In this document: in pieces, positions 2,291 to 42,348 of the stretch
Layout: every line of letters starts with the position of its first letter
How positions within the stretch are numbered: the stretch's first letter is position 1
Source of the DNA: Escherichia phage CJ20
DNA: 64,000 bases
Sequence record: MT533174.1
Reading direction: 5' to 3' (one strand)
Notes under the pieces: model-generated
Databases searched by the model: none
Told to the model about the DNA's origin: nothing
What the model saw: the letters and a program-made list of their open reading frames with translations, nothing else
Made by a program: the position numbers and the translations under genes

Positions 2291-4270
2291 TTATTGTGGT
2301 CCAATCAACTCATCGAAATCAGCACCCGTGCTTGTTGCCACGAAGTTAAGAGTGATGTAGTTGATGCTGCGCGCAGGTTTGAAATAAATGCTAGCAACAA
2401 ACTCATTTCGGTCTATGACCGACGGGGTGTTGTTAGTAGTATCACAAACCACACGACCTTCATAAATGCCACCGAGCGCACGAATACCATCTAAGTATTG
2501 AGAAGTTTCCATACGGAATGATGCGCGAGTAAAGTTATCGTTAAGCTCAAACAGTTTATATTTGGATGCGTCACCGATATTTTTCTTCAGCATATTCGTA
2601 AGACGGCGAACGTTGATATGGTCCATCGGAGATGGAACTTTAGTTGCAGTCTTATCACCATACAGAACAAAACCATCACCACCTGCGAAACCAACAACCG
2701 GGTTGATAGCTTCCTGATACATGCGGTCACGTTGGGTCTGACGTGGTTCAACAGCCAATTTCAGAACATTCAGAATCTGACCACGGTTATAGCCGGCCGG
2801 AGACATCCAAGGCTGAGAAACATCATCAGTACGAGCACACAGACCAGCCATATCAGCTGCCAGAGGAACCCAACGGTTAACGTCGTTATATTTATCATAC
2901 TGATATTTATAGTTGCCATCAATCGCTGCATAAGTCGTGCTGATATTCATGTTATCAGTATCAAATGCACCACTACCTGTACGCCAGTCAATCAGGTTAT
3001 CCACTGCACGGGTCAGAGGAACGTTAACCAACAGACCTTTCGGCGGAGAGATAAATGCCAAGCAATCCTGACGTTCGTCAGCGATAGAAACTACGTGCTT
3101 CTGAACAGTGGAAGCGGTTGCATCACCTTCACCAGCACAAGCACCAGCGATAAGCAGGTTAATATGTAGTGCTTCACGGTCAGCAAACAGGTCCCAACCT
3201 TGCATCAAATCACCAGCGGTAACTTGGTCGTTTGCAGAAATACCGCCCATCAGATTGATGATGCCTGCAAAACCTTTTGGCCAGTTCAGAGAAGTTGCAT
3301 AGATGTAATTGGAAGTACCTTTTGCAAAGTAGTCATCCAGATAAATGTTGTTGCCGTAAACGTCTTTATCGCCTTCTTTAGTTGACAGAACAACGTTTTC
3401 AACGATAGCACCATCACGGCGAACGATGATTGCATACTGGTCATCAGACTGTGGACCATAGTTAAACACCGCACGAGCTACAGAAGCACGGGAACCACCA
3501 TTTGGATAGATGTCAAGCATCTTCGAAGCGCCAGCATCATAAGCAGCTTTGGAAACGATTTCAACTTCGAGAGTCGAGCCGATTTCACCAGGATAAAGAG
3601 CAACAACACCTGGCATTGCATATTTCTGCAGGGAAGCCTGGAATTCCAGAGAGGTAATAGCTTCTTCACTATTTTCCGCTTCAGTCAACAGGATACCAGA
3701 ATCGGTAACAATTTTCCCGATGGTAATCGTACCAGACACACCTGAAGAAGTGGTCAGGATTTCAGCAGTCCAAGCCGGGCCTAAAGCAGGATACTGGTTT
3801 ACAGATTTTGCAAAGGCAATAATTTTGTCAGACGGAATGAAGACCGCAAGGATTTTCCCGTCAACGTCTACCTTGGTGATACGGCCGGCGGTTTCAACAA
3901 CAGTCTGGTTGTGTTTAACCTGGATAACGTCACCGACTGCATAGTTAGAACCAGCTGTAGCGATTGTACTTTCGATGTTCCCTGCTACCGGGGATGCGTT
4001 TTTAGCGTGGTCGCGGTTAACTACACGAACAGTACGCAGGTCATTACCATATTGAAGGAAGTTCATTCCACTCATAAAGTAGTCAGCCGTGATATTGTTC
4101 GGGCCACCAAACAAATCAACAAGTTCTACTTCGTTTGTAATCTGAGTTACCTGGAAAGCTGGGCCCCACTGGAATTTACCAACCAGCGCCGCACGACCCG
4201 TCGCGTTACGAACAACAGTGCTTTGGACCGTTGTTTCTTTGAGCTCAATGCCCGGGGATAATAAAGCCAT
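2291..4270 (-). CDS. 18: tail sheath protein, T4 gp18-like
   Basis: 659-aa ORF, same length as T4 gp18; MALLSPGIELKETTVQSTVV... and long internal stretches (VSQPWMSPAGYNRGQILNV, YITLNFVATSTGADFDEL) match my recall of T4 gp18. Confidence 0.95.
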   Translation of the reverse strand: MALLSPGIELKETTVQSTVVRNATGRAALVGKFQWGPAFQVTQITNEVELVDLFGGPNNITADYFMSGMNFLQYGNDLRTVRVVNRDHAKNASPVAGNIESTIATAGSNYAVGDVIQVKHNQTVVETAGRITKVDVDGKILAVFIPSDKIIAFAKSVNQYPALGPAWTAEILTTSSGVSGTITIGKIVTDSGILLTEAENSEEAITSLEFQASLQKYAMPGVVALYPGEIGSTLEVEIVSKAAYDAGASKMLDIYPNGGSRASVARAVFNYGPQSDDQYAIIVRRDGAIVENVVLSTKEGDKDVYGNNIYLDDYFAKGTSNYIYATSLNWPKGFAGIINLMGGISANDQVTAGDLMQGWDLFADREALHINLLIAGACAGEGDATASTVQKHVVSIADERQDCLAFISPPKGLLVNVPLTRAVDNLIDWRTGSGAFDTDNMNISTTYAAIDGNYKYQYDKYNDVNRWVPLAADMAGLCARTDDVSQPWMSPAGYNRGQILNVLKLAVEPRQTQRDRMYQEAINPVVGFAGGDGFVLYGDKTATKVPSPMDHINVRRLTNMLKKNIGDASKYKLFELNDNFTRASFRMETSQYLDGIRALGGIYEGRVVCDTTNNTPSVIDRNEFVASIYFKPARSINYITLNFVATSTGADFDELIGPQ

Positions 4271-10888: not shown

Positions 10889-12424
10889 TTATCTGACCTT
10901 AATAATAAAAAGAATAGACATGGACCATGGGCGGCTTTCATTACCTATCAGACCTTCGCTGTTTAATGTAGTTCGAGAATCACGACTGCCATCGCCATCG
11001 ACTTCATAACCTTCGTTCGTAAAATAAGAACGGTTATCCCAGTCCAAACCTTTACGAGTGCCTGCATAGTTTGAACGAGCTGTGTTACCAAATGCACCAG
11101 CATTATCATGTTCACCAAAACCACCGGCGTGCTTGTGGAAACGGAGTTGTTGTGCCTGTACTGTACCGTGACCATATGAACCAACACCTTGACCCAATTT
11201 AGGTTTTTGTTTGGAATCATTTCCTTTGGCGTTTCTTATATTAATGTTTGTTTCCCATTCCTTCATAGCACCATCGTTAGAGCTGTTGGAACCACGAGGA
11301 AACAATCCACGAAAATCTGGCTTATTACCAGTTGCGCCCCATTTACCACCAACGACATTTCGGAAACCAGCATCACCGACATTACCGCCGTCACAAATTT
11401 CCCAACCAGAAGGAATATTACCAGTTTGACCGCCCCACATAATAATAGTTCCGATTGGCACACTATCTTTTAGTTCGTTACGGGTTACAACATCCTGACC
11501 ATTTCTGCGTAAAGTTCCATTAACGTTAAGAGTTCCATTAATTGTACCGCCCCCAGTCGAAATGACGTTTGCATTATATGCAAGAGCTGTATTACCATCA
11601 CCTGAGCCAACGGTAGTTGTTAATTTAACAACACCAAGGCGACCAGTTGTGCCAGTTCTGGATAAAAGAGTGGACGGAGATAATGCAATATTCGAGTTAC
11701 TTCCCGCAGCTGCCTCGGACGGAGTTGCCAGACGAATAAGACCATTTTGGCTTTGCGTAGAAACGAGTTGTTTCAAGCCAAGCGGAGAAACTGCAACGCC
11801 ATCATTCATTGTCCCCTGCTGAACTTCCGCCGGAGTTGCAATTTTAACAATCCCTTGAACAGTGGTTGTTGCGGTGCTATAAGTTGGAAGTGCAGCCGTG
11901 GCTTTACCGATTGCTAATGAAACCTTCAGAGGAGTCATAGCTGTTGTATCATCAGTTCCGGCTAGCGCAGCCGGTTGGGTTGAAATCTTAATTACACCAT
12001 TGCGGTCTTCAGTAGAAGTGCGAGTATTAAATGTATTATCAATGGATGCTTTAAGACTTGACGGGACAATAGCTGCATCGGTTACTGTACCATCAATAGC
12101 TTCTGCATTGGTTGCGTAACGGGTAATACCAACATATGTTTCGGTAGCTTGTGTCGGGATAGTCAGTCGAGCTTTAAGAGTTTCTGGAGTTACTGCTGTA
12201 TTATTACCGAGACCATCAATAACTTCTTGTTCAGTTGCCAGTCGAATAATACCTGGGACTGCAACAGTTGCTTCTGGGATAAATCCATCAATAGCAATAG
12301 GAGCCAAAGCCCCTAATGCATCTTGAACGTTTGTTACTGTCGGCGAGAATGAAGTTCCCGCCGGGTCAAATGTTTTATATTCGGATTTATCGCTAATATG
12401 TTTTAGCGTGTTAGTCGTTGTCAT
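10889..12424 (-). CDS. 12: short tail fibre protein, T4 gp12-like
   Basis: 511-aa ORF; C-terminal region ...HKHAGGFGEHDNAGAFGNTARSNYAGTRKGLDWDNRSYFTNEGYE... closely matches my recall of T4 gp12. Confidence 0.9.
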   Translation of the reverse strand: MTTTNTLKHISDKSEYKTFDPAGTSFSPTVTNVQDALGALAPIAIDGFIPEATVAVPGIIRLATEQEVIDGLGNNTAVTPETLKARLTIPTQATETYVGITRYATNAEAIDGTVTDAAIVPSSLKASIDNTFNTRTSTEDRNGVIKISTQPAALAGTDDTTAMTPLKVSLAIGKATAALPTYSTATTTVQGIVKIATPAEVQQGTMNDGVAVSPLGLKQLVSTQSQNGLIRLATPSEAAAGSNSNIALSPSTLLSRTGTTGRLGVVKLTTTVGSGDGNTALAYNANVISTGGGTINGTLNVNGTLRRNGQDVVTRNELKDSVPIGTIIMWGGQTGNIPSGWEICDGGNVGDAGFRNVVGGKWGATGNKPDFRGLFPRGSNSSNDGAMKEWETNINIRNAKGNDSKQKPKLGQGVGSYGHGTVQAQQLRFHKHAGGFGEHDNAGAFGNTARSNYAGTRKGLDWDNRSYFTNEGYEVDGDGSRDSRTTLNSEGLIGNESRPWSMSILFIIKVR

Positions 12425-33919: not shown

Positions 33920-33949
33920 GTGTACATCCGAATTGACCGGGTGCATAAT
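33920..33949 (+). promoter_or_regulatory. T4-type early promoter (PeSL-like cassette with conserved leader)
   Basis: -35 GTGTAC (33920-33925), 18-nt spacer, -10 CATAAT (33944-33949), then the conserved leader GATTCCATACTGAGTTACA...GGAGAAATAAAATG. Confidence 0.6.
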
Positions 33950-34000
33950 GATTCCATACTGAGTTACACACTGAATCAAACAAAACTTTGGAGAAATAAA

Positions 34001-34426
34001 ATGAACTTTCTGACCCTGACCTCTGCATTCTCTGTTACCCGCATCACTAACAAAATGGTTGCTGACGAAGTATGTGAAATCTGCATTCGTGAAGATGCAC
34101 TTATTCATCTGACTTCAACCCAGATTGTTGCCATCGCCAAGTCCCTTAATTCTGAACTGAAGGTAAACACCAAACAGTCAAAAGAATCTATCATTGAATT
34201 AATCCAAGCTGAAATGATTGAATTTCCAATTGAAGAAGTTAAAGAAGAAAAAATCCAGTCCAAATCTGGTAACGCTCGTGACATTTGCTTCCAGGCATTT
34301 GCAGAAATTGATATGAATGATAATGCAGCTCGCCGCGCTCTGATTGATGTTCTGGTTACCACCCATGATATCAAAAAGACTGTTGTTCAGTCATATGCAT
34401 CCAACTTCCGCAAAGCTCAAAAATAA
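34001..34426 (+). CDS. hypothetical protein, 141 aa; C-terminal domain paralogous to the gene at 34879
   Basis: ATG at 34001 after GGAGAAATAAA; C-terminus ...DNAARRALIDVLVTTHDIKKTVVQSYASNFRKAQK shares a roughly 50-aa domain with the 34879 protein. Confidence 0.65.
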   Translation: MNFLTLTSAFSVTRITNKMVADEVCEICIREDALIHLTSTQIVAIAKSLNSELKVNTKQSKESIIELIQAEMIEFPIEEVKEEKIQSKSGNARDICFQAFAEIDMNDNAARRALIDVLVTTHDIKKTVVQSYASNFRKAQK

Positions 34427-34438
34427 TTGAGAAAAGTG

Positions 34439-34467
34439 TTTTACTTCCAGGTGGGATAGTGTATAAT
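34439..34467 (+). promoter_or_regulatory. T4-type early promoter with stem-loop (PeSL-like cassette)
   Basis: -35 TTTTAC (34439-34444), 17-nt spacer, -10 TATAAT (34462-34467) inside the inverted repeat GGGATAgtgTATAATTATCCC; conserved leader ...CATACTGAGTTAACAAATAAAACACTGGAGAATAAAATG. Confidence 0.6.
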
Positions 34468-34508
34468 TATCCCATACTGAGTTAACAAATAAAACACTGG
34501 AGAATAAA

Positions 34509-34805
34509 ATGTTCAACGCACCTGCATGGCACGCTACCCAAGCTCAAGAAGAAAACAAAGCAATCATTTCTGCTAAAATTGAAGCTCAACTGAATGAATT
34601 GTGTGAAACTGCTTCTGAAGAAGTTGTTGCAATCATCAAACAGTATCCTGCATCCAACTACTCCCTGGCATGCATCAAAACAGAAATGGTTAACTTGTGG
34701 CGTAAGAACAAGAAAACTTTCTTGGGTATGCAGTACCAAGCAATCGCGTCTGCAGTAGTAAACATGTATGACTTTGAAGTTTATTTCCCAACTTCTGAAA
34801 ATTAA
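34509..34805 (+). CDS. hypothetical protein, 98 aa
   Basis: ATG at 34509 after the conserved GGAGAATAAA leader (MFNAPAWHATQAQEENKAIISAKIE...). Confidence 0.6.
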   Translation: MFNAPAWHATQAQEENKAIISAKIEAQLNELCETASEEVVAIIKQYPASNYSLACIKTEMVNLWRKNKKTFLGMQYQAIASAVVNMYDFEVYFPTSEN

Positions 34806-34836: not shown

Positions 34837-34878
34837 GATTCCATACTGAGTTAACAAATAAACAAACGGGATAATAAA

Positions 34879-35322
34879 ATGAAAACTTCAAAACTGGTTA
34901 AGTATGTTAAACTGGCATTAAACAACTCTTCTGAAGCTGAAGCACAATCCGCAGCACGTATGTTCTTCAAACGTCTGACAGCTGAAGGTATTTCATTTAA
35001 CCCGGCAGTATTTGGTATCACTCGTGGCGAAGCTGCTAAACTGGCAACACTGGCAGGTAAAATTTTTAAAGGTCTGAATGATGGACAGGTTAAACCAGAA
35101 GTTAAACCTACTCCTAAGACTGAACCAAAAGCTGAACGTAAGGCACCTAAACGCTCCGGTATGAGCAACAAAGATTTATGCTATGATATGTTCAAAACTG
35201 TTAATATGTCTAATGGTGCTGCTCGCAGAGCTGTTATTGATATGATTGTGCGTGAGTTTGGATTCAACAAAGCATCAGTTCAGTCTTATGCTTCCAACTT
35301 CCGCAAAGAATTTGAAATTTAA
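34879..35322 (+). CDS. hypothetical protein, 147 aa; C-terminal domain paralogous to the gene at 34001
   Basis: ATG at 34879; C-terminus ...SNGAARRAVIDMIVREFGFNKASVQSYASNFRKEFEI. Confidence 0.65.
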   Translation: MKTSKLVKYVKLALNNSSEAEAQSAARMFFKRLTAEGISFNPAVFGITRGEAAKLATLAGKIFKGLNDGQVKPEVKPTPKTEPKAERKAPKRSGMSNKDLCYDMFKTVNMSNGAARRAVIDMIVREFGFNKASVQSYASNFRKEFEI

Positions 35323-35329
35323 TTCAAAA

Positions 35330-35355
35330 AGGGGGGTATACAAGCCCCCTGCTTT
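35330..35355 (+). terminator. hairpin, possible weak terminator overlapping the next early promoter
   Basis: GGGGGG-tatacaag-CCCCCT hairpin followed by GCTTTA; the -35 of the downstream promoter lies in its loop. Confidence 0.4.
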
Positions 35356-35365
35356 AAGGCATAAT
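35336..35365 (+). promoter_or_regulatory. T4-type early promoter (PeSL-like cassette with conserved leader)
   Basis: -35 GTATAC (35336-35341), 18-nt spacer, -10 CATAAT (35360-35365), then the GATTCCATACTGAGTTACACAATAAAACACTGGAGAATAAAATG leader. Confidence 0.55.
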
Positions 35366-35406
35366 GATTCCATACTGAGTTACACAATAAAACACTGGAG
35401 AATAAA

Positions 35407-35712
35407 ATGAAATTCATCATCAACCTGGCGCTTGTTGACTTTGATAAAACTGGTAATTTCGCATCTGCTGAAAATATGATTCGTAACACCAAGTTTAAAG
35501 TGCAAGTTCAACAGGCGGTAGCAAAAGAGTTCTTTACTGATAAATTAACTAACGTTGTCAATCACCTGAATGTGCAAGTTAAATTTACTCGTGAAGCAGA
35601 AACTACTGTTGCATTTGATTTTGACTGCCAATACCATGATGAATATGTTCGCCGTATCCTGGATATTGTGTCTGATGAACTGTATTATGGTGTGCAGGAA
35701 AACAAAATCTAA
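35407..35712 (+). CDS. hypothetical protein, 101 aa
   Basis: ATG at 35407 after the conserved leader (MKFIINLALVDFDKTGNFASAENMIRNTK...). Confidence 0.6.
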   Translation: MKFIINLALVDFDKTGNFASAENMIRNTKFKVQVQQAVAKEFFTDKLTNVVNHLNVQVKFTREAETTVAFDFDCQYHDEYVRRILDIVSDELYYGVQENKI

Positions 35713-35788: not shown

Positions 35789-36382
35789 ATGAATACTTTA
35801 AAGAAAATTGTTGAATTCATCCGCTCCAAACTGGGTACTGCAATGGCAAAAAACCTGTCTATTGAAGACCAATATACTCAAGCGGCTTCTACCCTGATTG
35901 ACAAGATTACTGAGCTCCAGACTGCCCACGTTAAGTCTATTAATGAAGAAAAACGCATCCGCGAGTTGGCGAATGAAAAAGACCAACTGGCAGCTTCAAA
36001 AGAGCGTGAAATCCGCAAACTGATTGCTGATGGTGCGGATGTCCAGGTCCATGCTAAACTGGGTCTCCTGTATCGCCGCACCGCTAAACAACTTCGTAAG
36101 AAGGCAGATGATTATGTTGAAATGCGTAATGAAATTAAATTGAAAGTTAAAGAGCTGGATGACTCTCGTCAGGAACTAGCTGTTAAACTGGAATACATCC
36201 GCGAAACCCGTAAAGTATCTGCTCTGGGTATTGCGACCGCAGATGATGTTGTTGAAATCGCTGCATTGACTAAGATTGATATTGAAGACACTCTGATGCG
36301 TGTTGAAACCTTCAAAGGTCCACAGGTTGGTGTGGATACCACGTCCGCTGACATTGAAGAATACATCAATTCACTTAAGTAA
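35789..36382 (+). CDS. coiled-coil protein, 197 aa (possibly PspA/IM30-like; unverified)
   Basis: [50 protein letters not shown]... predicted almost entirely alpha-helical with heptad character; followed by a GGGGGC-TTT-GCCCCC hairpin. Confidence 0.6.
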
Positions 36383-36424
36383 GATAAAGGGGGCTTTGCC
36401 CCCTAATTGGGAGAGGAGAAAATT

Positions 36425-36979
36425 ATGAGCTTATATACTGACCTTATATCAAATGTAGACTGGTTTGGCGGTAGTGGTCTTGCTACTGAAACTAATACAG
36501 TTCTTTATAGAATCCGCGGTGATTTGGGTTATTCCAATGATTTCTTAAGAAGAACGACAAGTCGCGGTGATACTACAAAATTGCCTTTTATTTTTGCTTT
36601 AGCTGAAGACCTTTCTTTTGCAGATGCCTTGGAAATTATTGATGTAAATCTGGGTATTCAACGAGTGGAATTCGCTGGACTACGTTATTCAGTATATGCT
36701 TTAAACGAGAGCGATGATTGTATACTTCTTAATATGGCAGATGATGATTACCATTTAGTATGTTATGTGACGCTAGAAAATGGTGATGTATTTGGAATGG
36801 TTGACCGCCGGCCAGCTTATACTGATATTAAAAATTATGATAAAGATGAGCTTACTATTTTGGCTAATGAGTACACATTAGAGAGTCGTAAACGGAAACG
36901 TAAGCTTAATCGTTTTATTGCTGAATGTCGTGAATATGCTAAAGGGGTTCATAATGCGAACGTTATATCTGCCAAGTAA
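36425..36979 (+). CDS. hypothetical protein, 184 aa, with C-terminal ...LNRFIAECREY tail shared with three downstream membrane proteins
   Basis: ATG at 36425 after GAGAGGAGAA (the ORF track starts at TTG 36407); MSLYTDLISNVDWFGGSGLATE... Confidence 0.6.
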   Translation: MSLYTDLISNVDWFGGSGLATETNTVLYRIRGDLGYSNDFLRRTTSRGDTTKLPFIFALAEDLSFADALEIIDVNLGIQRVEFAGLRYSVYALNESDDCILLNMADDDYHLVCYVTLENGDVFGMVDRRPAYTDIKNYDKDELTILANEYTLESRKRKRKLNRFIAECREYAKGVHNANVISAK

Positions 36980-37313
36980 ACCAGAAAAATTTGTATACGC
37001 AGACAAGATTGATAAAGACCTTATGCCTCCATTTGGAGCTTTGTCCATGTGCATCGTTGGGGTTATAATGATGGTGCTTTGTGGGGATATGAATATCATT
37101 AGTGTTGGAGTCGCCTGGACGCTAGTAATTGCAGCTCCTTTTATTACAGTCCTGTGTATGGTATTGATAAATGTGTGGCATCAAAATCATATGAATAAAG
37201 GTTATCGTGGGCGAGTTAAAGCGTGGGAACAAAAATGTGTTTCCCTGCAAGAAGAGCACAAAATTAAATGTGCCGAAGAATTTATTAAGGAGGTTCGTAA
37301 TGGAACGGCCTAG
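36954..37313 (+). CDS. small membrane protein, 119 aa, two predicted TM helices, C-terminal ...EEFIKEVRNGTA
   Basis: ATG at 36954 overlapping the end of the previous gene (MRTLYLPSKPEKFVYADKID...); hydrophobic segments MCIVGVIMMVLCG and WTLVIAAPFITVLCMVLINVW. Confidence 0.6.
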   Translation: MRTLYLPSKPEKFVYADKIDKDLMPPFGALSMCIVGVIMMVLCGDMNIISVGVAWTLVIAAPFITVLCMVLINVWHQNHMNKGYRGRVKAWEQKCVSLQEEHKIKCAEEFIKEVRNGTA

Positions 37314-37653
37314 TCTTGCATCACATGTTTATCAATTGGTTGAATATGATATTGGTGCCAATTTATTATTAGGGATTGTCACTGCCATGCTTGGTGGTTT
37401 GGTTGGTCTGGTAATGACCACGGTTATGGCTGCAATCGAGGGAGTCATGCCCATTGAGATGGGTTTCTTTATGATAATCGCTCCGGCTGTTGTGTCTTAT
37501 TTTATCCCTGTTGTGTATGATATCTGTCACACAAATGCCGTGAATGCTCCTAGTCGGAAGAGATACGCTTCAGCAATGGCTGAGTATAATAAGTTCCTAG
37601 ACAAAACAAAACGTAATGACCTTGAAACCTTTATTAAGGAATGTAAATCATGA
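37300..37653 (+). CDS. small membrane protein, 117 aa, two predicted TM helices, C-terminal ...LETFIKECKS
   Basis: ATG at 37300 after AGGAGG (MERPSLASHVYQLVEYDIGANLLLGIVTAMLGGLVGLVMTTVMAAIEG...). Confidence 0.6.
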   Translation: MERPSLASHVYQLVEYDIGANLLLGIVTAMLGGLVGLVMTTVMAAIEGVMPIEMGFFMIIAPAVVSYFIPVVYDICHTNAVNAPSRKRYASAMAEYNKFLDKTKRNDLETFIKECKS

Positions 37654-37940
37654 ATAAAATTGAAATTGCTATCCCCAAGTATTATGATGAGAAATCTGCA
37701 GAAAAAGCCATCTATTCTCTTCTAAATAAGACCTCTGAAATTGAAAAACACTGTGAAGAAATCGCAGATGAATATGGTATCCAATTCGGTACCGGTGATT
37801 ATGGTTCAGGCCGCACATATTATCCTGTCGGTTATGAATGCTCCCAGTGGTTTAAAAATGAAATTGAAAACAACGGTGGTGAAGTTGAAAACGGTGTCGT
37901 TACAGTTGGTGCTTGGGTCTCCTCTTCGGCAATGTGCTAA
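37650..37940 (+). CDS. member 1 of a tandem four-gene family, 96 aa, C-terminal ...GAWVSSSAMC
   Basis: ATG at 37650 in ATGA overlap with the previous gene; MNKIEIAIPKYYDEKSAEKAIYSLLNKTSEIEKHCEEIADEYGIQF... Confidence 0.65.
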   Translation: MNKIEIAIPKYYDEKSAEKAIYSLLNKTSEIEKHCEEIADEYGIQFGTGDYGSGRTYYPVGYECSQWFKNEIENNGGEVENGVVTVGAWVSSSAMC

Positions 37941-37949
37941 GGAAACGCT

Positions 37950-38231
37950 ATGATGAATGATTACCGTAAAAATAAAGAACTGGCTAACGCAGTAAATGAC
38001 ATCCATAAAGCTATTCGTCGTGCCGAGGAAATTGCAGACAAATATGAGACTCATTTTAATATATACCCTGCTCGCGGTATGGGCGGTGACTATTATTCTC
38101 CTGGCGCCTTGAAAGCTGACCTTGCCCATTGGGAAGAACATGGTCATCCTGAATGGGCTATTGTTAATACTCATGACTATACAACTGACCTGGAAAATGG
38201 TGGTTGGGTGTCCTCCTCTTACGAATGCTAA
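37950..38231 (+). CDS. member 2 of a tandem four-gene family, 93 aa, C-terminal ...GGWVSSSYEC
   Basis: ATG after the TAAGGAAACGCT junction; shares EEIADKYETHF and the C-terminal tail with member 1. Confidence 0.65.
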   Translation: MMNDYRKNKELANAVNDIHKAIRRAEEIADKYETHFNIYPARGMGGDYYSPGALKADLAHWEEHGHPEWAIVNTHDYTTDLENGGWVSSSYEC

Positions 38232-38240
38232 GGAAATAAA

Positions 38241-38468
38241 ATGACTGCTAAAACTGTTAAAGAAATTGAAAACCAAATCCGTGCACTAATCTGTGAAGGT
38301 GAGCAGCTGGCCGATAAAACTGGTGAATACTTTCATGTGTATGCTGATAGTCTTCAACGATATATTCCCGCAGGTTGTCCAGAATATGAAGAATATGACT
38401 GGATTCGCGGTGATTACGGTATCCCAGATGGTAAAGGCTTCTGGTTTAACTCCTCTATGACTTGTTAA
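38241..38468 (+). CDS. member 3 of a tandem four-gene family, 75 aa, C-terminal ...GFWFNSSMTC
   Basis: ATG after the TAAGGAAATAAA junction; MTAKTVKEIENQIRALICEGEQLADKTGEYFHVY... Confidence 0.65.
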   Translation: MTAKTVKEIENQIRALICEGEQLADKTGEYFHVYADSLQRYIPAGCPEYEEYDWIRGDYGIPDGKGFWFNSSMTC

Positions 38469-38477
38469 GGTGATAAA

Positions 38478-38711
38478 ATGACTACTGCTGTTGAACATGC
38501 TGAATTAGAAAAAGCTGCCCTTGAACTGGCTGCGCTGTATAAGAAAGTAAAAGATATGGCTTCTGCCCAAGATTTCGGTGTTGAGCTTGACGATTATGAT
38601 GGCGAAGTCCGTCTTGAAGATTGGTTGAATAGCTCTTGTTACGGTGAAGAAGCTGGTCGTACCTTCGTTGCTCGTGCCGATGGTAAAATCTGGTACCCGA
38701 GCTCATGCTAA
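38478..38711 (+). CDS. member 4 of a tandem four-gene family, 77 aa, C-terminal ...KIWYPSSC (also has an internal WLNSSC)
   Basis: ATG after the TAAGGTGATAAA junction; MTTAVEHAELEKAALELAALYKKVKDMASAQDFGVELDDYDGE... Confidence 0.65.
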   Translation: MTTAVEHAELEKAALELAALYKKVKDMASAQDFGVELDDYDGEVRLEDWLNSSCYGEEAGRTFVARADGKIWYPSSC

Positions 38712-38932
38712 AATTAAAGAAAAGATATATTCGTAAAATAAATGGTCTTCGTGATTATGCCAAAGGTTGGCCATTAAGTATTATTATGGCTGATAGACAT
38801 CCACGTTATAATAACGAGTTGACTTATTACAAAAAGTATGATTCGTATTGTCGGTCTAAAGCGGGTCGTTTAGATGGTTCCTATGAAGAATATTTCGGTA
38901 AAAAACCTACTCGTATTTCGTTAGGAAAATAA
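38705..38932 (+). CDS. hypothetical protein, 75 aa
   Basis: ATG ORF overlapping the previous stop (MLKLKKRYIRKINGLRDYAKGWPLSIIMADRHPRYNN...). Confidence 0.5.
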   Translation: MLKLKKRYIRKINGLRDYAKGWPLSIIMADRHPRYNNELTYYKKYDSYCRSKAGRLDGSYEEYFGKKPTRISLGK

Positions 38933-38962
38933 TTTAATCACAAGGATGTGGTAGGAGGAATT

Positions 38963-39292
38963 ATGCATAAAGATTCGGTATTCAAATATCTTTTGAAAAC
39001 AGATAAAGAATTCTATATGAATGGGCAAGCCTTCTTGTTCGTTCGTGGTAAACGTGAGATGTTTTACAAATGCGACCTCTCAATGCATCATCATATGTAT
39101 CATACCCACGGTGAGCATATACTGGGGTTCTCCGGTGACGAGACTAGACATATAGCTATGTACTATGACCATTTTAAGCTTAATGATTGTGGTGACAATG
39201 CTTTAGTCTGGAACTCATCTTGGCGCCGATGGGACGTAGTAGACAACAATAAATTATTTTTAGAATATTGTCGAAGCAGTATACAAGTCTAA
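38963..39292 (+). CDS. hypothetical His/Cys-rich protein, 109 aa
   Basis: ATG at 38963 after GGAGGAATT (MHKDSVFKYLLKTDKEF...CDLSMHHHMYHTHGEH...); possible metal-binding cluster. Confidence 0.55.
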   Translation: MHKDSVFKYLLKTDKEFYMNGQAFLFVRGKREMFYKCDLSMHHHMYHTHGEHILGFSGDETRHIAMYYDHFKLNDCGDNALVWNSSWRRWDVVDNNKLFLEYCRSSIQV

Positions 39293-39356
39293 AAAACTGT
39301 GTTACTATACTCCTATCAACTGATGACAATCACGTTATCAGAACAGGAGAATAAAA

Positions 39357-39557
39357 ATGTCTATCGCAAACGAATTAATCAAAGTTCTGAACGAAGCCAA
39401 AGTCAACCAACTGGAGGTTAATCTCCAGGAAGTTTCTGATGGCATTAAAGTAACCATCAGTGGTGATTACGCAGGCGTCACAGAACGTGTTTGTGATTCT
39501 CTGGAAGAAGTAGTTTCCTGCATTAAAAGAGATATTTACGCATACGGTATTATTTGA
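39357..39557 (+). CDS. hypothetical protein, 66 aa
   Basis: ATG after AGGAGAATAAAA (MSIANELIKVLNEAKVNQLEVNLQE...). Confidence 0.55.
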   Translation: MSIANELIKVLNEAKVNQLEVNLQEVSDGIKVTISGDYAGVTERVCDSLEEVVSCIKRDIYAYGII

Positions 39558-39567
39558 GGAAAATATT

Positions 39568-39798
39568 ATGTGGTATTACGCCCCAATGGCTGATGAGCCC
39601 GTAAAAATTAGTCGTGCTAAGTTTACAAAGATTTACGGTCTCGTTTATAAGAAGTCTGATTACGGTGTTCGTTTTGAAGATGCGCACTGTATCAACGACC
39701 CTTATAATGAAGACCTCTATGGCAAATTGGTTCCTATCGTTAAGGGGTCCGCTTCTGAGATGATAGATGAATCTAATATCTCTGCTGCTGAAATTTAA
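39568..39798 (+). CDS. hypothetical protein, 76 aa
   Basis: ATG after GAGGAAAATATT (MWYYAPMADEPVKISRAKFTKIYGLVYKK...). Confidence 0.55.
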   Translation: MWYYAPMADEPVKISRAKFTKIYGLVYKKSDYGVRFEDAHCINDPYNEDLYGKLVPIVKGSASEMIDESNISAAEI

Positions 39799-39816
39799 GT
39801 TACTGAGGAAAATATT

Positions 39817-40776
39817 ATGATGTTAGTTATTGGCTCTCGCGCATTGCATAACGCCGGTCTGATTGAAAGTAAGAAAATTGAAAACTCTGATTGGGACTTT
39901 ATAGCAGACCAAGGTTCCTGGAACAACTTTAAAACCCAGATGATGGGGCAGCATGTTCCTGTGGATAACCCAGATGTGCAAGCTTTTAAGTGTATGCACA
40001 ACGGTAAAGAAACCTATTTTGAAGCATACATCGTCCGAGCCCTGACAAGTGTTCGTGAGCTGACTGATGAGCTACAAGAGGAAGATTTTACTTCCAGTTA
40101 TCGTCTGCTCAAATATGCGAAGGCAAATATTCAGAAAGACCGTCTATCTGGTTTTTACTGGGCGACCCCTGATATTTGTCTGGCAATTAAATTGTCTCAT
40201 CGTTACCTGAAGAACAATCCATTCTTCCTGAAGACAATGAGCCATATTAATTACCTTCGTAATAAGGGTGTTGTTCTTAATGATGAACTACAAAAAATCA
40301 TGCAACAACGACAGGCAGAAACACTGTCATATAGCCACCCTAAACTAGACGTGGGCAAGAAAACTTTCTTTAATGATACAATCTATACCCTTGACCATGA
40401 CTCCATCCACGAGGCCGTGGCGCTTGCTGATAAGCCTGCATATAAGTTCTATATGAAGGATGATTCAGAAGTTATGACCTCGCGTGAAAAATTTGAAGCA
40501 CTCCCTGAGATTATTAAACTGGCAGGGGTTTATGAAGAAGCATGTGTGCTCGCTCTGGAGCGTTCGCAGGTTCCTAATGAGTTCAATATTTCTCCATCCG
40601 TGAGCTTCCATATTGCACTGGAAAAAGTCTGTACCTCCATTACTTCTGGATGGTTCCGTGAGTATGCCTGGGAACATTACCAGGAAGTGGTTAATATGTA
40701 CAACACCCTGGGTCACGAAGACTATGTTAAACGTTTCAAGGCTAACCAACATTTAATTCGTCCTTTCGAAAAATAA
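39817..40776 (+). CDS. hypothetical protein, 319 aa (N-terminal G-S...D-W-D pattern is at best a weak nucleotidyltransferase-like hint)
   Basis: Long ATG ORF after GAGGAAAATATT (MMLVIGSRALHNAGLIESKKIENSDWDFIADQ...); no family confidently recognised. Confidence 0.7.
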   Translation: MMLVIGSRALHNAGLIESKKIENSDWDFIADQGSWNNFKTQMMGQHVPVDNPDVQAFKCMHNGKETYFEAYIVRALTSVRELTDELQEEDFTSSYRLLKYAKANIQKDRLSGFYWATPDICLAIKLSHRYLKNNPFFLKTMSHINYLRNKGVVLNDELQKIMQQRQAETLSYSHPKLDVGKKTFFNDTIYTLDHDSIHEAVALADKPAYKFYMKDDSEVMTSREKFEALPEIIKLAGVYEEACVLALERSQVPNEFNISPSVSFHIALEKVCTSITSGWFREYAWEHYQEVVNMYNTLGHEDYVKRFKANQHLIRPFEK

Positions 40777-40778
40777 TT

Positions 40779-40808
40779 GTGTACATCCAAGTGGGGCTAT
40801 GACACAAT
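40779..40808 (+). promoter_or_regulatory. T4-type early promoter (PeSL-like cassette)
   Basis: -35 GTGTAC (40779-40784), 18-nt spacer, -10 CACAAT (40803-40808), RBS GAGGAAAATATT before the ATG at 40836. Confidence 0.5.
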
Positions 40809-40835
40809 GGTCCCACAATCAATGAGGAAAATATT

Positions 40836-41528
40836 ATGAACAGTCCAAAAACTTTTAATAGTCAAATGCGTGAAGTTGGTCAATTTGCTCAATATGTCAG
40901 TAATGACGAAATCAAAAATGAACCGATGTTCTTTAACTGCTATCCAGAATTTGCGCATAAGCATGGTGGCCCAATCACGCGCAGTTTTCTTGATAACCTA
41001 CCAAAAGAATGGACTGATGGTCCTGATAATTTGGTGTTTGACTCTCGCGTCCATATGTTGATGCCTGGTTGGTATCCTGCTATCCCTGGGTATCACCATG
41101 ATGATGTACCACGTCCAGATATTCCAGCAGGACAACATTTTATTACAGCAGGACAACCTGATTATGATAACCCTCGTTACCATTCTGAACACATCCTGGG
41201 TCTGGTTAACGCTTCTGTTTGCCCTACTAATTTTGCTCTGGGAACTTCAGAATTCAGTCAGATTCCTGATGGCGAACTTATCTATCGCCAGTGGCACCAG
41301 GAAGTTCTGGAAAAAATCAAGGCGGGTGAACTTTTAGTTCAAGAAGCTCCTGACCGCACATTATGTGAATTCAACTGGCAGACCTGGCATACTGGAACAA
41401 AAACAGTTAGTAACGGTTGGCGCTGGTTTGGTCGCGTATCTCGTAAAACAGACCGTGTTAATAAAGTTACCAATGAAATCCGCGTTAATGCTCAAGTATA
41501 TCTGGAATTCCCCATGGAGGGCTGGTAA
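40836..41528 (+). CDS. hypothetical protein, 230 aa
   Basis: ATG ORF (MNSPKTFNSQMREVGQFAQYVSNDEIKNEPMFFNCYPEF...); no family recognised. Confidence 0.7.
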   Translation: MNSPKTFNSQMREVGQFAQYVSNDEIKNEPMFFNCYPEFAHKHGGPITRSFLDNLPKEWTDGPDNLVFDSRVHMLMPGWYPAIPGYHHDDVPRPDIPAGQHFITAGQPDYDNPRYHSEHILGLVNASVCPTNFALGTSEFSQIPDGELIYRQWHQEVLEKIKAGELLVQEAPDRTLCEFNWQTWHTGTKTVSNGWRWFGRVSRKTDRVNKVTNEIRVNAQVYLEFPMEGW

Positions 41529-42115
41529 TGGCCCTTTATGAACCTGGGTGTATGGGTGTTGATGTAAACTTCATCCGTCGCCCAGAAAATGCAGGAATTA
41601 TTGTCTCAAGAGACGAATTTATGATTACCAAAAGATATTGGGCGGACCTTGATGATGGTGATGAAGGAATCAAGGTTGAAAACGTTGATTGGTCGCGATG
41701 CAATCGTCATGTGAAAGAGCTTTTAATTAAGGAATATAAAATGGGATATATTGTTAATGGGTATCAACCGGAACCACTCAAAGAACAGACACCCGACCCA
41801 TTAATTTCTTATAGCAAGAAATATGGATTTCGTACCTGGAAAGATGAATTTGATAAGTTAATTTGTTCCAGGTTTTATGTGTGGGCTGGAATCTTATTTT
41901 TACCAATCCTGTTGTTTTTCTTGACAGGTAAAAATGAAGCACCTGTGGCTGTAATGGGTGCGTGCATTTCTTCTGCTGCTGTTGGACTTATTGCATCATT
42001 TTTATGGACTATGGCTATTGAAGTACCTTTTCGTATTTCTAAAGTTAAAAAGGTATACGACGATATCGCTAAGAAAAATACATTAAATTCTTTTATTGAG
42101 GAATGCCGTAAATGA
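41528..42115 (+). CDS. membrane protein, 195 aa, two predicted TM helices, C-terminal ...LNSFIEECRK
   Basis: ATGA overlap with the previous gene; hydrophobic segments FYVWAGILFLPILLFFL and VAVMGACISSAAVGLIASFLWTMAI; the C-terminal tail matches the FIxEC family at 36425-37653. Confidence 0.65.
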   Translation: MALYEPGCMGVDVNFIRRPENAGIIVSRDEFMITKRYWADLDDGDEGIKVENVDWSRCNRHVKELLIKEYKMGYIVNGYQPEPLKEQTPDPLISYSKKYGFRTWKDEFDKLICSRFYVWAGILFLPILLFFLTGKNEAPVAVMGACISSAAVGLIASFLWTMAIEVPFRISKVKKVYDDIAKKNTLNSFIEECRK

Positions 42116-42348
42116 GTATTGCAATTTATATTAAATCTGAGTCGTGTGATTCTTATCTGTATTCCTATGACACCGGAACATCAGAAGAGAAAATCAAAGA
42201 AGATTTGGAAAGTGACTTGGATATGTTCCGGCCTATTTCCGATTATATGGTCCAAATATCTGATAGTGAAAGCCCATCAACAGAAACATGCGTTGAAATT
42301 ATTATGGCCGAAATCTTTAAAAAATCTTGGGAACGTGATGATGAGTAA
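42112..42348 (+). CDS. small acidic protein, 78 aa
   Basis: ATGA overlap with the previous gene (MSIAIYIKSESCDSYLYSYDTGTSEEKIKEDLESDLDMF...); preferred over the overlapping frame that forms the N-terminal extension of the nudE ORF. Confidence 0.55.
   Translation: MSIAIYIKSESCDSYLYSYDTGTSEEKIKEDLESDLDMFRPISDYMVQISDSESPSTETCVEIIMAEIFKKSWERDDE

Follow-up and report, generated by a model that had tools for sequence, protein, structure and literature searches.

Phage T4 is the best-studied large phage, yet its genes e.2–e.6 have no assigned function. This block is presumably transcribed early or at middle times. No curated Pfam or NCBIfam family was found for e.2–e.6, and full-text searching of the literature, whether by gene name or by theme, yielded nothing of relevance to these genes. 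The T4 proteins e.3, e.4 and e.5 end in ...MKEFVIDCRKIK, ...IMKFVKESRCKSQS and ...LEKFVKECREYVKAITIPSK, respectively. These three proteins and a broken e.2 are the T4 carriers of a short conserved tail, and the complete T4 genome holds no such tail outside e.2–e.5 and none on a protein of known function.

Several described systems are comparable in other respects. T4 Imm and Sp are made early and, according to the T4 record annotation, are small proteins of a T4-like phage acting at the cell envelope. The membrane-targeting sequences of MinD and FtsA act as in-plane amphipathic helices. LiaI with LiaH, and PspB/PspC with PspA, exemplify small membrane anchors of PspA-type proteins. In 2010, Arbiol et al. 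reportedly described promoter-early stem-loop cassettes and repeat-mediated modular shuffling in the hyperplastic regions of T4-type genomes. Finally, T4 internal proteins bear the targeting sequence MKTYQEFIAE, in which Y4 and F7 serve targeting and I8 and E10 serve processing; C-terminal processing by gp21 is also known for Alt (PMC9026906). The capsid targeting sequence is likewise a short conserved peptide on hypervariable, unrelated proteins of the same plastic regions, with a similar hydrophobic-x-x-F-I-x-E spacing.

In this study, the window, namely, the whole 64 kb stretch of Escherichia phage CJ20 DNA, was analysed. The window is T4-like and ~95% identical to Shigella phage SP18. An earlier note on this DNA had singled out four proteins (A, B, C and D), mostly two-helix membrane proteins, as a family with a common C-terminal motif. 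All four open reading frames are present, each with a good Shine-Dalgarno sequence, and their endings were confirmed as ...LNRFIAECREYAKGVHNANVISAK (A), ...EEFIKEVRNGTA (B), ...LETFIKECKS (C) and ...LNSFIEECRK (D). A, B, C and D correspond to e.5-like, e.4, e.3 and e.2 genes, respectively. The features of the locus are as follows.

35789..36382, + strand: e.6 gene, 197 aa, all-helical hairpin protein; conserved upstream neighbour in every tail-gene cluster examined
36388..36404, + strand: GC-rich hairpin between e.6 and A, the first tail gene
36425..36979, + strand: A, 184 aa, soluble, putative divergent e.5-family protein (phrog_8788)
36905-36931, + strand: tail of A, LNRFIAECR, followed by 15 more residues
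36941..36956, + strand: junction repeat copy 1, AAAGGGGTTCATAATG, forming the Shine-Dalgarno sequence and ATG of gene B
36954..37313, + strand: B, e.4 homologue, 119 aa, two-helix hairpin (phrog_2604, E 1.2e-44)
37272-37298, + strand: tail of B, AEEFIKEVR, with Val replacing Cys
37287..37302, + strand: junction repeat copy 2, AAGGAGGTTCGTAATG, forming the Shine-Dalgarno sequence and ATG of gene C
37300..37653, + strand: C, e.3 homologue, 117 aa, two-helix hairpin (phrog_2330, E 2.5e-45)
37621-37647, + strand: tail of C, LETFIKECK
38963..39292, + strand: candidate fifth member, 109 aa, soluble, His/Cys-rich, ending in ...NKLFLEYCRSSIQV (phrog_9796)
39248-39274, + strand: tail of the fifth member, NKLFLEYCR
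41528..42115, + strand: D, e.2 homologue, 195 aa, N-terminal soluble domain plus two-helix hairpin (phrog_2203, E 1.9e-66)
42083-42109, + strand: tail of D, LNSFIEECR

Terminators are annotated at the position equivalent to the 36388..36404 hairpin in the records of phages MP1 and CfP1.

Sequence comparisons identify these tail genes with the known, uncharacterised T4 open reading frames e.2–e.5 (PHROGs 2203, 2330, 2604 and 2607). B, C and D are direct homologues of e.4, e.3 and e.2. B matched T4 e.4 in tblastn (5e-13), its phrog_2604 match spans residues 1–118, and the SP18 record annotates its counterpart as e.4. C matched T4 e.3 (tblastn 1.5e-6), which falls in the same phrog_2330 (E 2.9e-57), and D matched the T4 e.2 region (tblastn 1.2e-18). 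A occupies the e.5 position directly after e.6 and has conserved columns in common with e.5 proteins of other genera, but it lies beyond BLAST or HMM detection outside the tail. When A was aligned with e.5 proteins of nine other genera, N94, F164 and C168 were invariant and a common ...YS(V/I)xxxN(D/E)... block was found. The e.5 family was represented by phrog_2607, phrog_13418 and relatives. With tails removed, the hhalign probability was 91% between T4 e.5 and Klebsiella-type e.5, which are homologous without their tails, 19.5% over 106 columns between A and Klebsiella-type e.5 (a weak match) and 0.5% between A and T4 e.5. The window phage differs from T4 in having extra tail genes and an intact e.2, which is broken in the T4 reference.

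The conservation of the tail, as claimed in the earlier note, proved to be non-random. Six-frame translation of the 64 kb window yields exactly three instances of the pattern L..FI.EC[RK] (in A, C and D), whereas shuffling predicts 0.01. A nine-column scoring matrix made only from tails of other genomes, leaving the window out, placed the tails of A–D at ranks 1–4 of 81,332 six-frame positions (24.8, 23.4, 20.1 and 19.2 bits); among matches clearly due to chance, the highest score was 13.1 bits. The pattern count and the matrix ranks together exclude a chance origin. The tail at 38963-39292 ranked fifth of 81,332 with 13.6 bits, near the best chance match, and this gene is a probable fifth tail-bearing member with a score at the noise boundary. 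T4-type capsid targeting 9-mers ranked from 38th to 662nd of 81,332 with the same matrix, and 78–137 with a seven-column version.

The tail core reads hydrophobic-x-x-F-(I/V)-x-x-C-(R/K). Among 88 non-redundant tails, collected by a regular expression that already required [FYW][IVL]..[CIVS][RK] in the last 40 residues of each open reading frame, F was found in 83, I/V in 82, C in 74 and R/K in all 88. Position -3, which the expression left free, held L, I, V or F in 69 of the 88. The motif lay within about the last 35 residues in the tails found, and ranked at or near the top among the conserved 9-residue windows of the e.2, e.3 and Klebsiella-type e.5 families. All four proteins carry the tail, as had been claimed, although in A it is not terminal. 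The Cys of the proposed motif is common to A, C and D, and the Val of B reflects a constant trait of the e.4 subfamily, where I, V or S replaces Cys throughout; this exchange is easier to reconcile with a small, buried hydrophobic position than with a role in catalysis or metal binding. The residue before the Cys (+3) is Glu in just 46 of the 88 tails, and E, Q, S, M, H and Y all occur there within the e.5 family, so the binding surface is not fully fixed and gp21-type cleavage cannot be a conserved property.

The designation of these proteins as a family is misleading, since the tail sits on many unrelated bodies, including soluble ones. With tails removed, proteins from 25 loci in ~11 genera fell into 31 BLAST clusters, giving at least 30 BLAST-unrelated bodies, which are either soluble domains or two-helix membrane hairpins. 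In profile–profile comparison, matches obtained with the tails kept spanned just the 9–24 tail columns, and most vanished on tail removal; e.3 and e.4 were the sole pair to retain a weak whole-length signal. A single homologous family was thereby ruled out. Up to six tail genes occur in one genome (Morganella phage MP1 and KaAlpha). Soluble tail-bearing proteins occupy a block position similar to that of the fifth member in L014–L016, Marfa and KaAlpha, and hhalign gave a weak match (16%) between the fifth member and the L014–L016 soluble cluster. These comparisons indicate that the tail is a portable, protein-level module on otherwise unrelated small proteins of one early-gene block. A DNA pattern scan of IMG/VR for FI(K/E)EC(R/S)K-stop gave 17 matches, 11 of which are e.2 or e.3 of T4-like genomes, and five of the other six lie in open reading frames of 8–33 codons. 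The sixth, L032, is a longer open reading frame that ends in FIEECSK and overlaps an ATGA start.

The setting described in the earlier note, a cytoplasmic tail on small membrane proteins of an early-gene block, was borne out. Hydropathy gave two hydrophobic helices in each of B, C and D and none in A, as claimed. Across 17 representative hairpin members, K+R counts were 54 in the N-terminal flank, 9 in the loop and 93 in the C-terminal flank, and by the positive-inside rule this distribution indicates an N-in/C-in hairpin with the tail in the cytoplasm. In the AF2 model of A, which is weak overall (pLDDT 65), the tail lies inside a long C-terminal helix (residues 153–183, pLDDT ~80–85 there); Foldseek searches with this model gave only meaningless matches (TM ~0.2). 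The i, i+3, i+4, i+7 spacing brings four hydrophobic residues onto one helical face, namely, the -3 residue, F, I/V and C, with the basic residue beside them. The tail is thus predicted to be a short amphipathic helix, helical where modelled (A).

We infer that the tail binds something. The suggestion of a shared interaction peptide in the earlier note is, in putative form, the reading favoured here. A shared docking helix offers the best explanation of the data, held tentatively as a real possibility. The tail helix would act as a common docking or assembly handle for diverse proteins, and all tails would share one partner on the cytoplasmic side of the inner membrane. The bodies are those encoded in the early-gene block from e.6 to nudE, i.e., e.2, e.3, e.4 and e.5 in T4 and extra genes elsewhere, and the set grows and shrinks via tandem duplication and recombination in the short Shine-Dalgarno/ATG junction repeat.

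The protein e.6, encoded immediately upstream, is the leading candidate partner, and its being the partner is in itself rather unlikely. The gene directly after e.6 bears a tail in 25/25 loci from ~11 genera, and e.6 lies 1.4–6 kb upstream in 14/14 e.2-anchored loci; this linkage is synteny within a single viral lineage, whose members keep these genes adjacent in any case. The e.6/e.5 pair has stayed intact in Aeromonas phages 65 and avDM5 and Citrobacter phage CfP1 even though it has moved to other genomic surroundings there. Acinetobacter phage 133, the single genome serving as negative control, is without e.6, and a scan of 149 of its 160 kb revealed no tail. The e.6 protein, of ~200 aa, is a long helical hairpin with best Foldseek matches to Vipp1, and this fold resemblance to Vipp1/ESCRT-III is ambiguous. 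The relation to PspA was rejected at the sequence level: none of 28 e.6 homologues matched Pfam PspA_IM30, the e.6 profile found nothing relevant among PDB sequences, and exhaustive HMMER searches with e.6 recovered just 45 phage-type representatives. The architecture is like that of the LiaI and PspB/PspC anchors: small N-in/C-in hairpins bearing a cytoplasmic tail have a ~200-aa helical-hairpin protein, e.6, encoded beside them. The likeness to the Psp/Lia families is confined to architecture, with no sequence similarity, and B, C and D had no Pfam or NCBIfam match, which places them outside the LiaI/PspB/PspC families by sequence. The fuller version, in which e.6 would be a membrane scaffold (Vipp1/PspA/ESCRT-III or BAR-like) into which the tail plugs the hairpin anchors and the soluble e.5, is decidedly unlikely.

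The tails could instead bind one another. As homo- or hetero-oligomeric bundles, they would join soluble e.5 and the hairpins in one complex with no outside partner. The co-occurrence of several tail genes per genome agrees with this arrangement, and the narrow hydrophobic face deduced from the spacing would suit a small helical bundle. However, in avDM5 and CfP1 the conserved tail is found on e.5 and on no neighbouring gene, so hetero-oligomerisation cannot be the sole role; homo-oligomerisation would still fit. Self-association is considered unlikely.

A tail lying in the plane of the membrane would explain its amphipathic character, its cytoplasmic location near the C-terminus and the many flanking K/R residues (e.g., RKRKRKLNRFIAECREYAK, CRGKK and CRRRL). 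Such a helix on the cytoplasmic surface would recruit e.5 and pin the tails of the hairpins. Surface helices tolerate wide variation, whereas F, C and R are almost fixed here; acidic residues are common at -2, -1 and +3, and the hydrophobic face comprises four residues, one of which is Cys. The motif is also present on proteins already integral to the membrane. An in-plane anchor is judged quite improbable.

The earlier note had guessed at superinfection-exclusion or immunity proteins resembling T4 Imm and Sp, or at anti-defence factors; on this view, the tail would contact a protein of the host or of a defence system. The genes encode small early membrane proteins and form a hypervariable block whose copy number and bodies change between genera, which is compatible with this guess, as such variability would be typical of arms-race genes, and the PHROG label of phrog_2203 is 'moron, auxiliary metabolic gene and host takeover'. 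The comparison found no sequence support. In tblastn of A–D against the whole T4 genome, matches were limited to e.2, e.3, e.4 and the e.5 tail, with no imm or sp at E up to 10, and T4 Imm has no such tail. The only match to an exclusion family was Pfam SieB, whose score of 11.8 bits (E 0.19) falls short of the cut-off of 26. A relationship to Imm, Sp or SieB was rejected for lack of similarity, and the literature searches gave nothing in its favour. For an anti-defence role, the data speak neither in favour nor against. The guess concerns the bodies and leaves the constant tail unexplained; it is compatible with docking and is not a true alternative. As an account of the tail, it is very doubtful.

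The conserved element could also reside in the DNA, as an inter-gene junction that acts as a ribosome-binding or recombination site and makes the peptide incidental. The tail does overlap the ribosome-binding site of the next gene: the +2/+3 codons AAGGAG, AAGGAA and GAGGAA stand 7–8 nt before the next ATG, and the commonest position of the next start codon is 2 nt past the R/K codon. AAG and AGA/AGG are over-represented at codons +2 and +5, so part of the conservation reflects the downstream ribosome-binding site. The junction pattern AARGRGGTTCRTAATG occurs exactly twice in the window, and its second copy overlaps the K-E-V-R codons of the B tail. In L005, L006 and L008, C follows A without e.4 between them, and the join coincides exactly with the 16-nt repeat found on either side of e.4 in the window, which indicates that this repeat mediated e.4 gain or loss. 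Short gene-boundary repeats thus allow precise gain or loss of a single open reading frame, as in T4-type hyperplastic shuffling; the repeat there is a promoter stem-loop, whereas here it is a 16-nt Shine-Dalgarno/ATG junction within or just after the tail codons.

The third codon positions of the tail are nevertheless free. Cys is encoded by TGT 43 times and TGC 31 times, in line with the background ratio, each of the six Arg codons occurs, and R and K interchange via unrelated codons (CGT and AAA); 320 pairwise codon differences in the tail columns are synonymous. The use of both Cys codons and all six Arg codons points to selection on the protein. The next long open reading frame begins 16–71 nt past the R/K codon in at least 14 of 77 measured tails, with a 64-nt gap for the fifth member, and no RNA structure stood out at the tail or junction (z-scores -1.0 to +1.1). 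A purine-rich ribosome-binding site leaves F, I/V, C and the -3 hydrophobic residue unexplained. Nucleotide-level conservation was rejected as the cause, with just the purine-rich overlay of the next ribosome-binding site left, and it is highly unlikely as the main account.

A relationship to capsid targeting, by which the tail would bind the prohead core and gp21 would cut after the Glu (with membrane members perhaps holding proheads at the membrane up to maturation), is the least credible reading and was rejected, because the similarity is weak and the Glu is not conserved: Y4/F7/I8/E10 do align in spacing with tail positions -3/0/+1/+3, internal-protein genes flank the tail-gene block and Alt gives a precedent for C-terminal processing by gp21, but the targeting sequence stands at the N-terminus after Met, needs the cleavage Glu, and is without the Cys-Arg that is the hallmark of the C-terminal tail. 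Many proteins with the tail are, moreover, membrane proteins and so unfit for packaging, and the e.2–e.6 block is presumably of early or middle timing.

The docking reading makes the block of 'hypothetical membrane proteins' directly testable, as a single 9-residue handle is present on at least five ORFans per genome. The gain or loss of e.4 at the 16-nt junction repeat is a small, clear example of how accessory-gene arrays are remodelled. If the partner of the tail is a host protein, it would be a common host target of many variable phage proteins. If the partner is e.6, the tail and e.6 would form a membrane module that is conserved among phages and present in more than a thousand sequenced T4-like genomes. 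If the scaffold version is true, T4-like phages would bring with them a modular system by which the inner membrane of the infected cell is remodelled or protected.

The interval 36000-42200 of the window matched Shigella phage SP18 (Gaprivervirus) at 95% identity over 96% of the length, and the source of the window is, by this comparison, a T4-like phage. The gene order in the SP18 record is e.6, a hypothetical gene, e.4, a hypothetical gene, approximately fifteen small ORFs, e.2, one ORF, nudE, e (lysozyme) and denV. The window genes were assigned as follows, A to D being those with the shared C-terminal motif (the tail):

35789-36382, assigned e.6
36425-36979, A, e.5 by position
36954-37313, B, e.4
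37300-37653, C, e.3 by position
41528-42115, D, e.2

PHROG profiles placed B, C and D in phrog_2604, phrog_2330 and phrog_2203, respectively, and T4 e.4 and e.3 belong to the same families as B and C. Using tblastn against the complete T4 genome, B matched e.4 (5e-13), C matched e.3 (1.5e-6) and D matched e.2 (1.2e-18). Pfam and NCBIfam contained no significant model for the window tail proteins. The alignment of A with the e.5 proteins from nine genera rests on a common ...YS(V/I)xxxN(D/E)... block and the tail, and a divergent e.5 is the best reading of A. The tail carriers are known but uncharacterised T4 genes; a literature search found nothing relevant on these genes or the tail, which is, as far as found, previously undescribed. 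The analogy with Imm/Sp proposed in the earlier note gained no sequence support from Pfam or from tblastn against the complete T4 genome. Compared with T4-type e.2, D carries a 31-residue N-terminal extension (41528-41620), and the PHROG profile match begins at residue 32; its Shine-Dalgarno is strong at the long start (GGAGGG) and weak at the internal ATG (41621).

The four ORFs and their quoted endings were recovered as the earlier note described, with two hydrophobic helices each in B, C and D and none in A. The claim of a common ending holds for the motif, which all four share; 15 residues follow it in A, and Val replaces Cys in B. The six-frame translation of the window had three matches to the pattern L..FI.EC[RK], where shuffles predict 0.01. 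A 9-column scoring matrix built only from the tails of other genomes ranked the four window tails 1-4 of 81,332 positions (24.8, 23.4, 20.1 and 19.2 bits). NKLFLEYCR, at the end of a soluble 109-aa protein (38963-39292), is a fifth candidate and scored 13.6 bits, narrowly above the 13.1 of the best chance match.

The comparison covered 25 e.6-anchored loci: the window, 15 loci taken from IMG/VR, and those of SP18, T4, Serratia LC53, Aeromonas 65 and avDM5, Morganella MP1, Klebsiella Marfa and KaAlpha, and Citrobacter CfP1. Every locus had tail-bearing genes, with at most six per genome. Tails were gathered by the regular expression [FYW][IVL]..[CIVS][RK] (88 non-redundant), so the position counts are partly preset: L/I/V/F at -3 (69/88), F at 0 (83/88), I/V at +1 (82/88), E at +3 (46/88), C at +4 (74/88) and R/K at +5 (88/88). 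Non-Cys residues at +4 in the e.4 subfamily were I, V or S. These counts give a durable core of hydrophobic-x-x-F-(I/V)-x-x-C-(R/K), and the acidic residue is variable and lies outside it. The tail feature is real, reproducible and lineage-wide. In T4, e.5 ends in ...LEKFVKECREYVKAITIPSK, e.4 in ...IMKFVKESRCKSQS and e.3 in ...MKEFVIDCRKIK. The reference T4 e.2 is broken by a 1-nt deletion and a compensating 1-nt insertion, separated by about 90 nt and producing in-frame stops (T4 67,481-67,960; about 3492-3961 of the T4 region analysed). A tail-coding remnant of e.2 (...LNNFITECRKLK) lies unannotated between e.2 and nudE and is the second-best matrix match genome-wide (22.9 bits); e.2 is intact (162 aa) in three close relatives (L010, L012 and L013). 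The matrix scan of the complete T4 genome revealed no further gene with the tail. In the T4-type locus L009, taken as Yersinia phage ZN18, the e.5 ORF (10973-11251) has just 92 aa from the first ATG and keeps the tail; it is possibly truncated or frameshifted.

The earlier note regarded the carriers as a protein family; the tail is instead a module on different bodies, and the 88 proteins fell into 31 BLAST clusters once tails were removed. About a dozen clusters are soluble, and the rest have at least one hydrophobic segment, mostly as two-helix hairpins. In profile-profile comparisons, T4-type and Klebsiella-type e.5 remained homologous when tails were removed (probability 91%), e.3 and e.4 gave a weak whole-length signal (13% without and 82% with tails), and the e.2-e.3 match needed the tail (87%, 84 columns); in nearly all remaining pairs the alignment was confined to 9-24 tail columns. 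Single tail genes also come and go as cassettes. The 16-nt AARGRGGTTCRTAATG, comprising a Shine-Dalgarno and ATG, has exactly two copies in the window, at the A/B junction (36941-36956) and the B/C junction (37287-37302), and in the three e.4-less genomes (L005, L006 and L008) the A-C join falls precisely inside this repeat.

Other genes of the region were also recorded. Four tandem small acidic paralogues (37650-37940, the first, phrog_899; 37950-38231; 38241-38468; 38478-38711) end in W-x-(S/N)-S-S-x-x-C-stop or a shorter variant (GAWVSSSAMC, GGWVSSSYEC, GFWFNSSMTC and IWYPSSC). Such endings also occur in Serratia LC53, Klebsiella Marfa and KaAlpha, forming a second C-terminal-motif family interspersed among the tail genes. 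Two larger conserved genes in the block have no tail: 39817-40776, with DUF7277 (E 5.5e-27) and DUF7275 (2.8e-76), and 40836-41528, phrog_1843, for which one relative carries the annotation phytanoyl-CoA dioxygenase. A paralogous pair (33920-34426 and 34879-35322) shares a C-terminal domain ending ...VQSYASNFRK, and promoter-like sequences and repeated DNA precede several genes (~33920-33990, 34440-34510, 34851-34880 and 35337-35408).

Across 17 representative hairpin members, the N-flank held 54 K+R residues, the short loop 9 and the segment past the second helix 93. This distribution indicates an N-in/C-in topology and bears out the cytoplasmic tail of the earlier note. The second helix is followed by 29-57 residues in all. 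The tail of A lies within a long C-terminal helix of the AF2 model (pLDDT ~80-85; whole model weak, pLDDT 65). If helical, positions -3, 0, +1 and +4 share one face, and a buried small hydrophobic residue at +4 would agree with the I/V/S that e.4 has in place of Cys. We infer the mechanism: a portable cytoplasmic docking helix would tie variable bodies to one common partner. This is the best-supported reading, with e.6 as the leading candidate partner, though e.6 specifically is rather unlikely; alternatively, the tails may self-associate or serve as in-plane membrane anchors.

The gene directly 3' of e.6 carried the tail in 25/25 loci and, except in Morganella MP1, encoded an e.5-type soluble protein with a 5-25-residue extension beyond the tail. 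The e.6/e.5 pair is kept in other neighbourhoods, adjoining gene 31 in Aeromonas 65 and nrdD in avDM5 and CfP1, and e.6 was upstream in 14/14 e.2-anchored loci. Neither e.6 nor a credible tail was found in the 149 of 160 kb scanned of Acinetobacter phage 133. Conservation of e.6 is high and its distribution wide (1110 phage records), and it forms a closed family with 45 representatives among 1.8 billion proteins. Its AF2 model (pLDDT 73) shows a long helical hairpin with short helices after it, for which Foldseek placed nine Vipp1 structures on top (probability 1.0, E 8e-3 to 7e-2); as e.6 had no sequence match to PspA/IM30, a membrane-scaffold-like e.6 is a lead and not a finding. Residues 1-16 of e.6 (35789-35836), of low AF2 confidence, show the hydrophobic-x-x-F-I spacing of the tails and the capsid targeting sequence, and F10 is almost invariant among 28 homologues. 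A GC-rich hairpin, AGGGGGCTTTGCCCCCT (36388-36404, without a T-run on the + strand), lies between e.6 and A, and the records of MP1 and CfP1 annotate terminators at the equivalent site; this hairpin may set differing expression of e.6 and the tail genes.

The tail could also be a by-product of junction DNA or RNA. The next gene's signal does overlay tail codons: its Shine-Dalgarno, 7-8 nt before the ATG, is made up of the +2/+3 codons (AAGGAG, AAGGAA, GAGGAA), the codons AAG and AGA/AGG are over-represented, and the commonest next start codon position is 2 nt past the R/K codon. However, tail Cys codons (TGT 43, TGC 31) matched the 60:40 background, all six Arg codons are in use, Lys substitutes via unrelated codons, and family alignments held 320 synonymous pairwise codon differences in tail columns. 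The nonsynonymous-to-synonymous ratio was 2.0 in the tail and 3.3 elsewhere, as a crude count of non-independent pairs. Ranked by conservation, the tail was among the top 9-residue stretches of the e.2, e.3 and Klebsiella-type e.5 families. What is conserved is therefore the peptide, and no outstanding RNA structure was found at tail-gene junctions.

A capsid-targeting-like signal, a further rival reading, agrees with the tail in determinant spacing, since targeting by the T4 sequence depends on Y4 and F7 and processing on I8 and E10 (PMC9026906); however, the matrix places targeting sequences just 38th-662nd of 81,332, and the tails do not conserve Glu. Five window genes (starts 30131, 30767, 43320, 44475 and 44795) open with the internal-protein targeting sequence MKT(Y/F)xEF(I/F)xE and sit either side of the e.6-to-nudE block. 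The motif gives experiments a direct way into this block of T4 ORFans.
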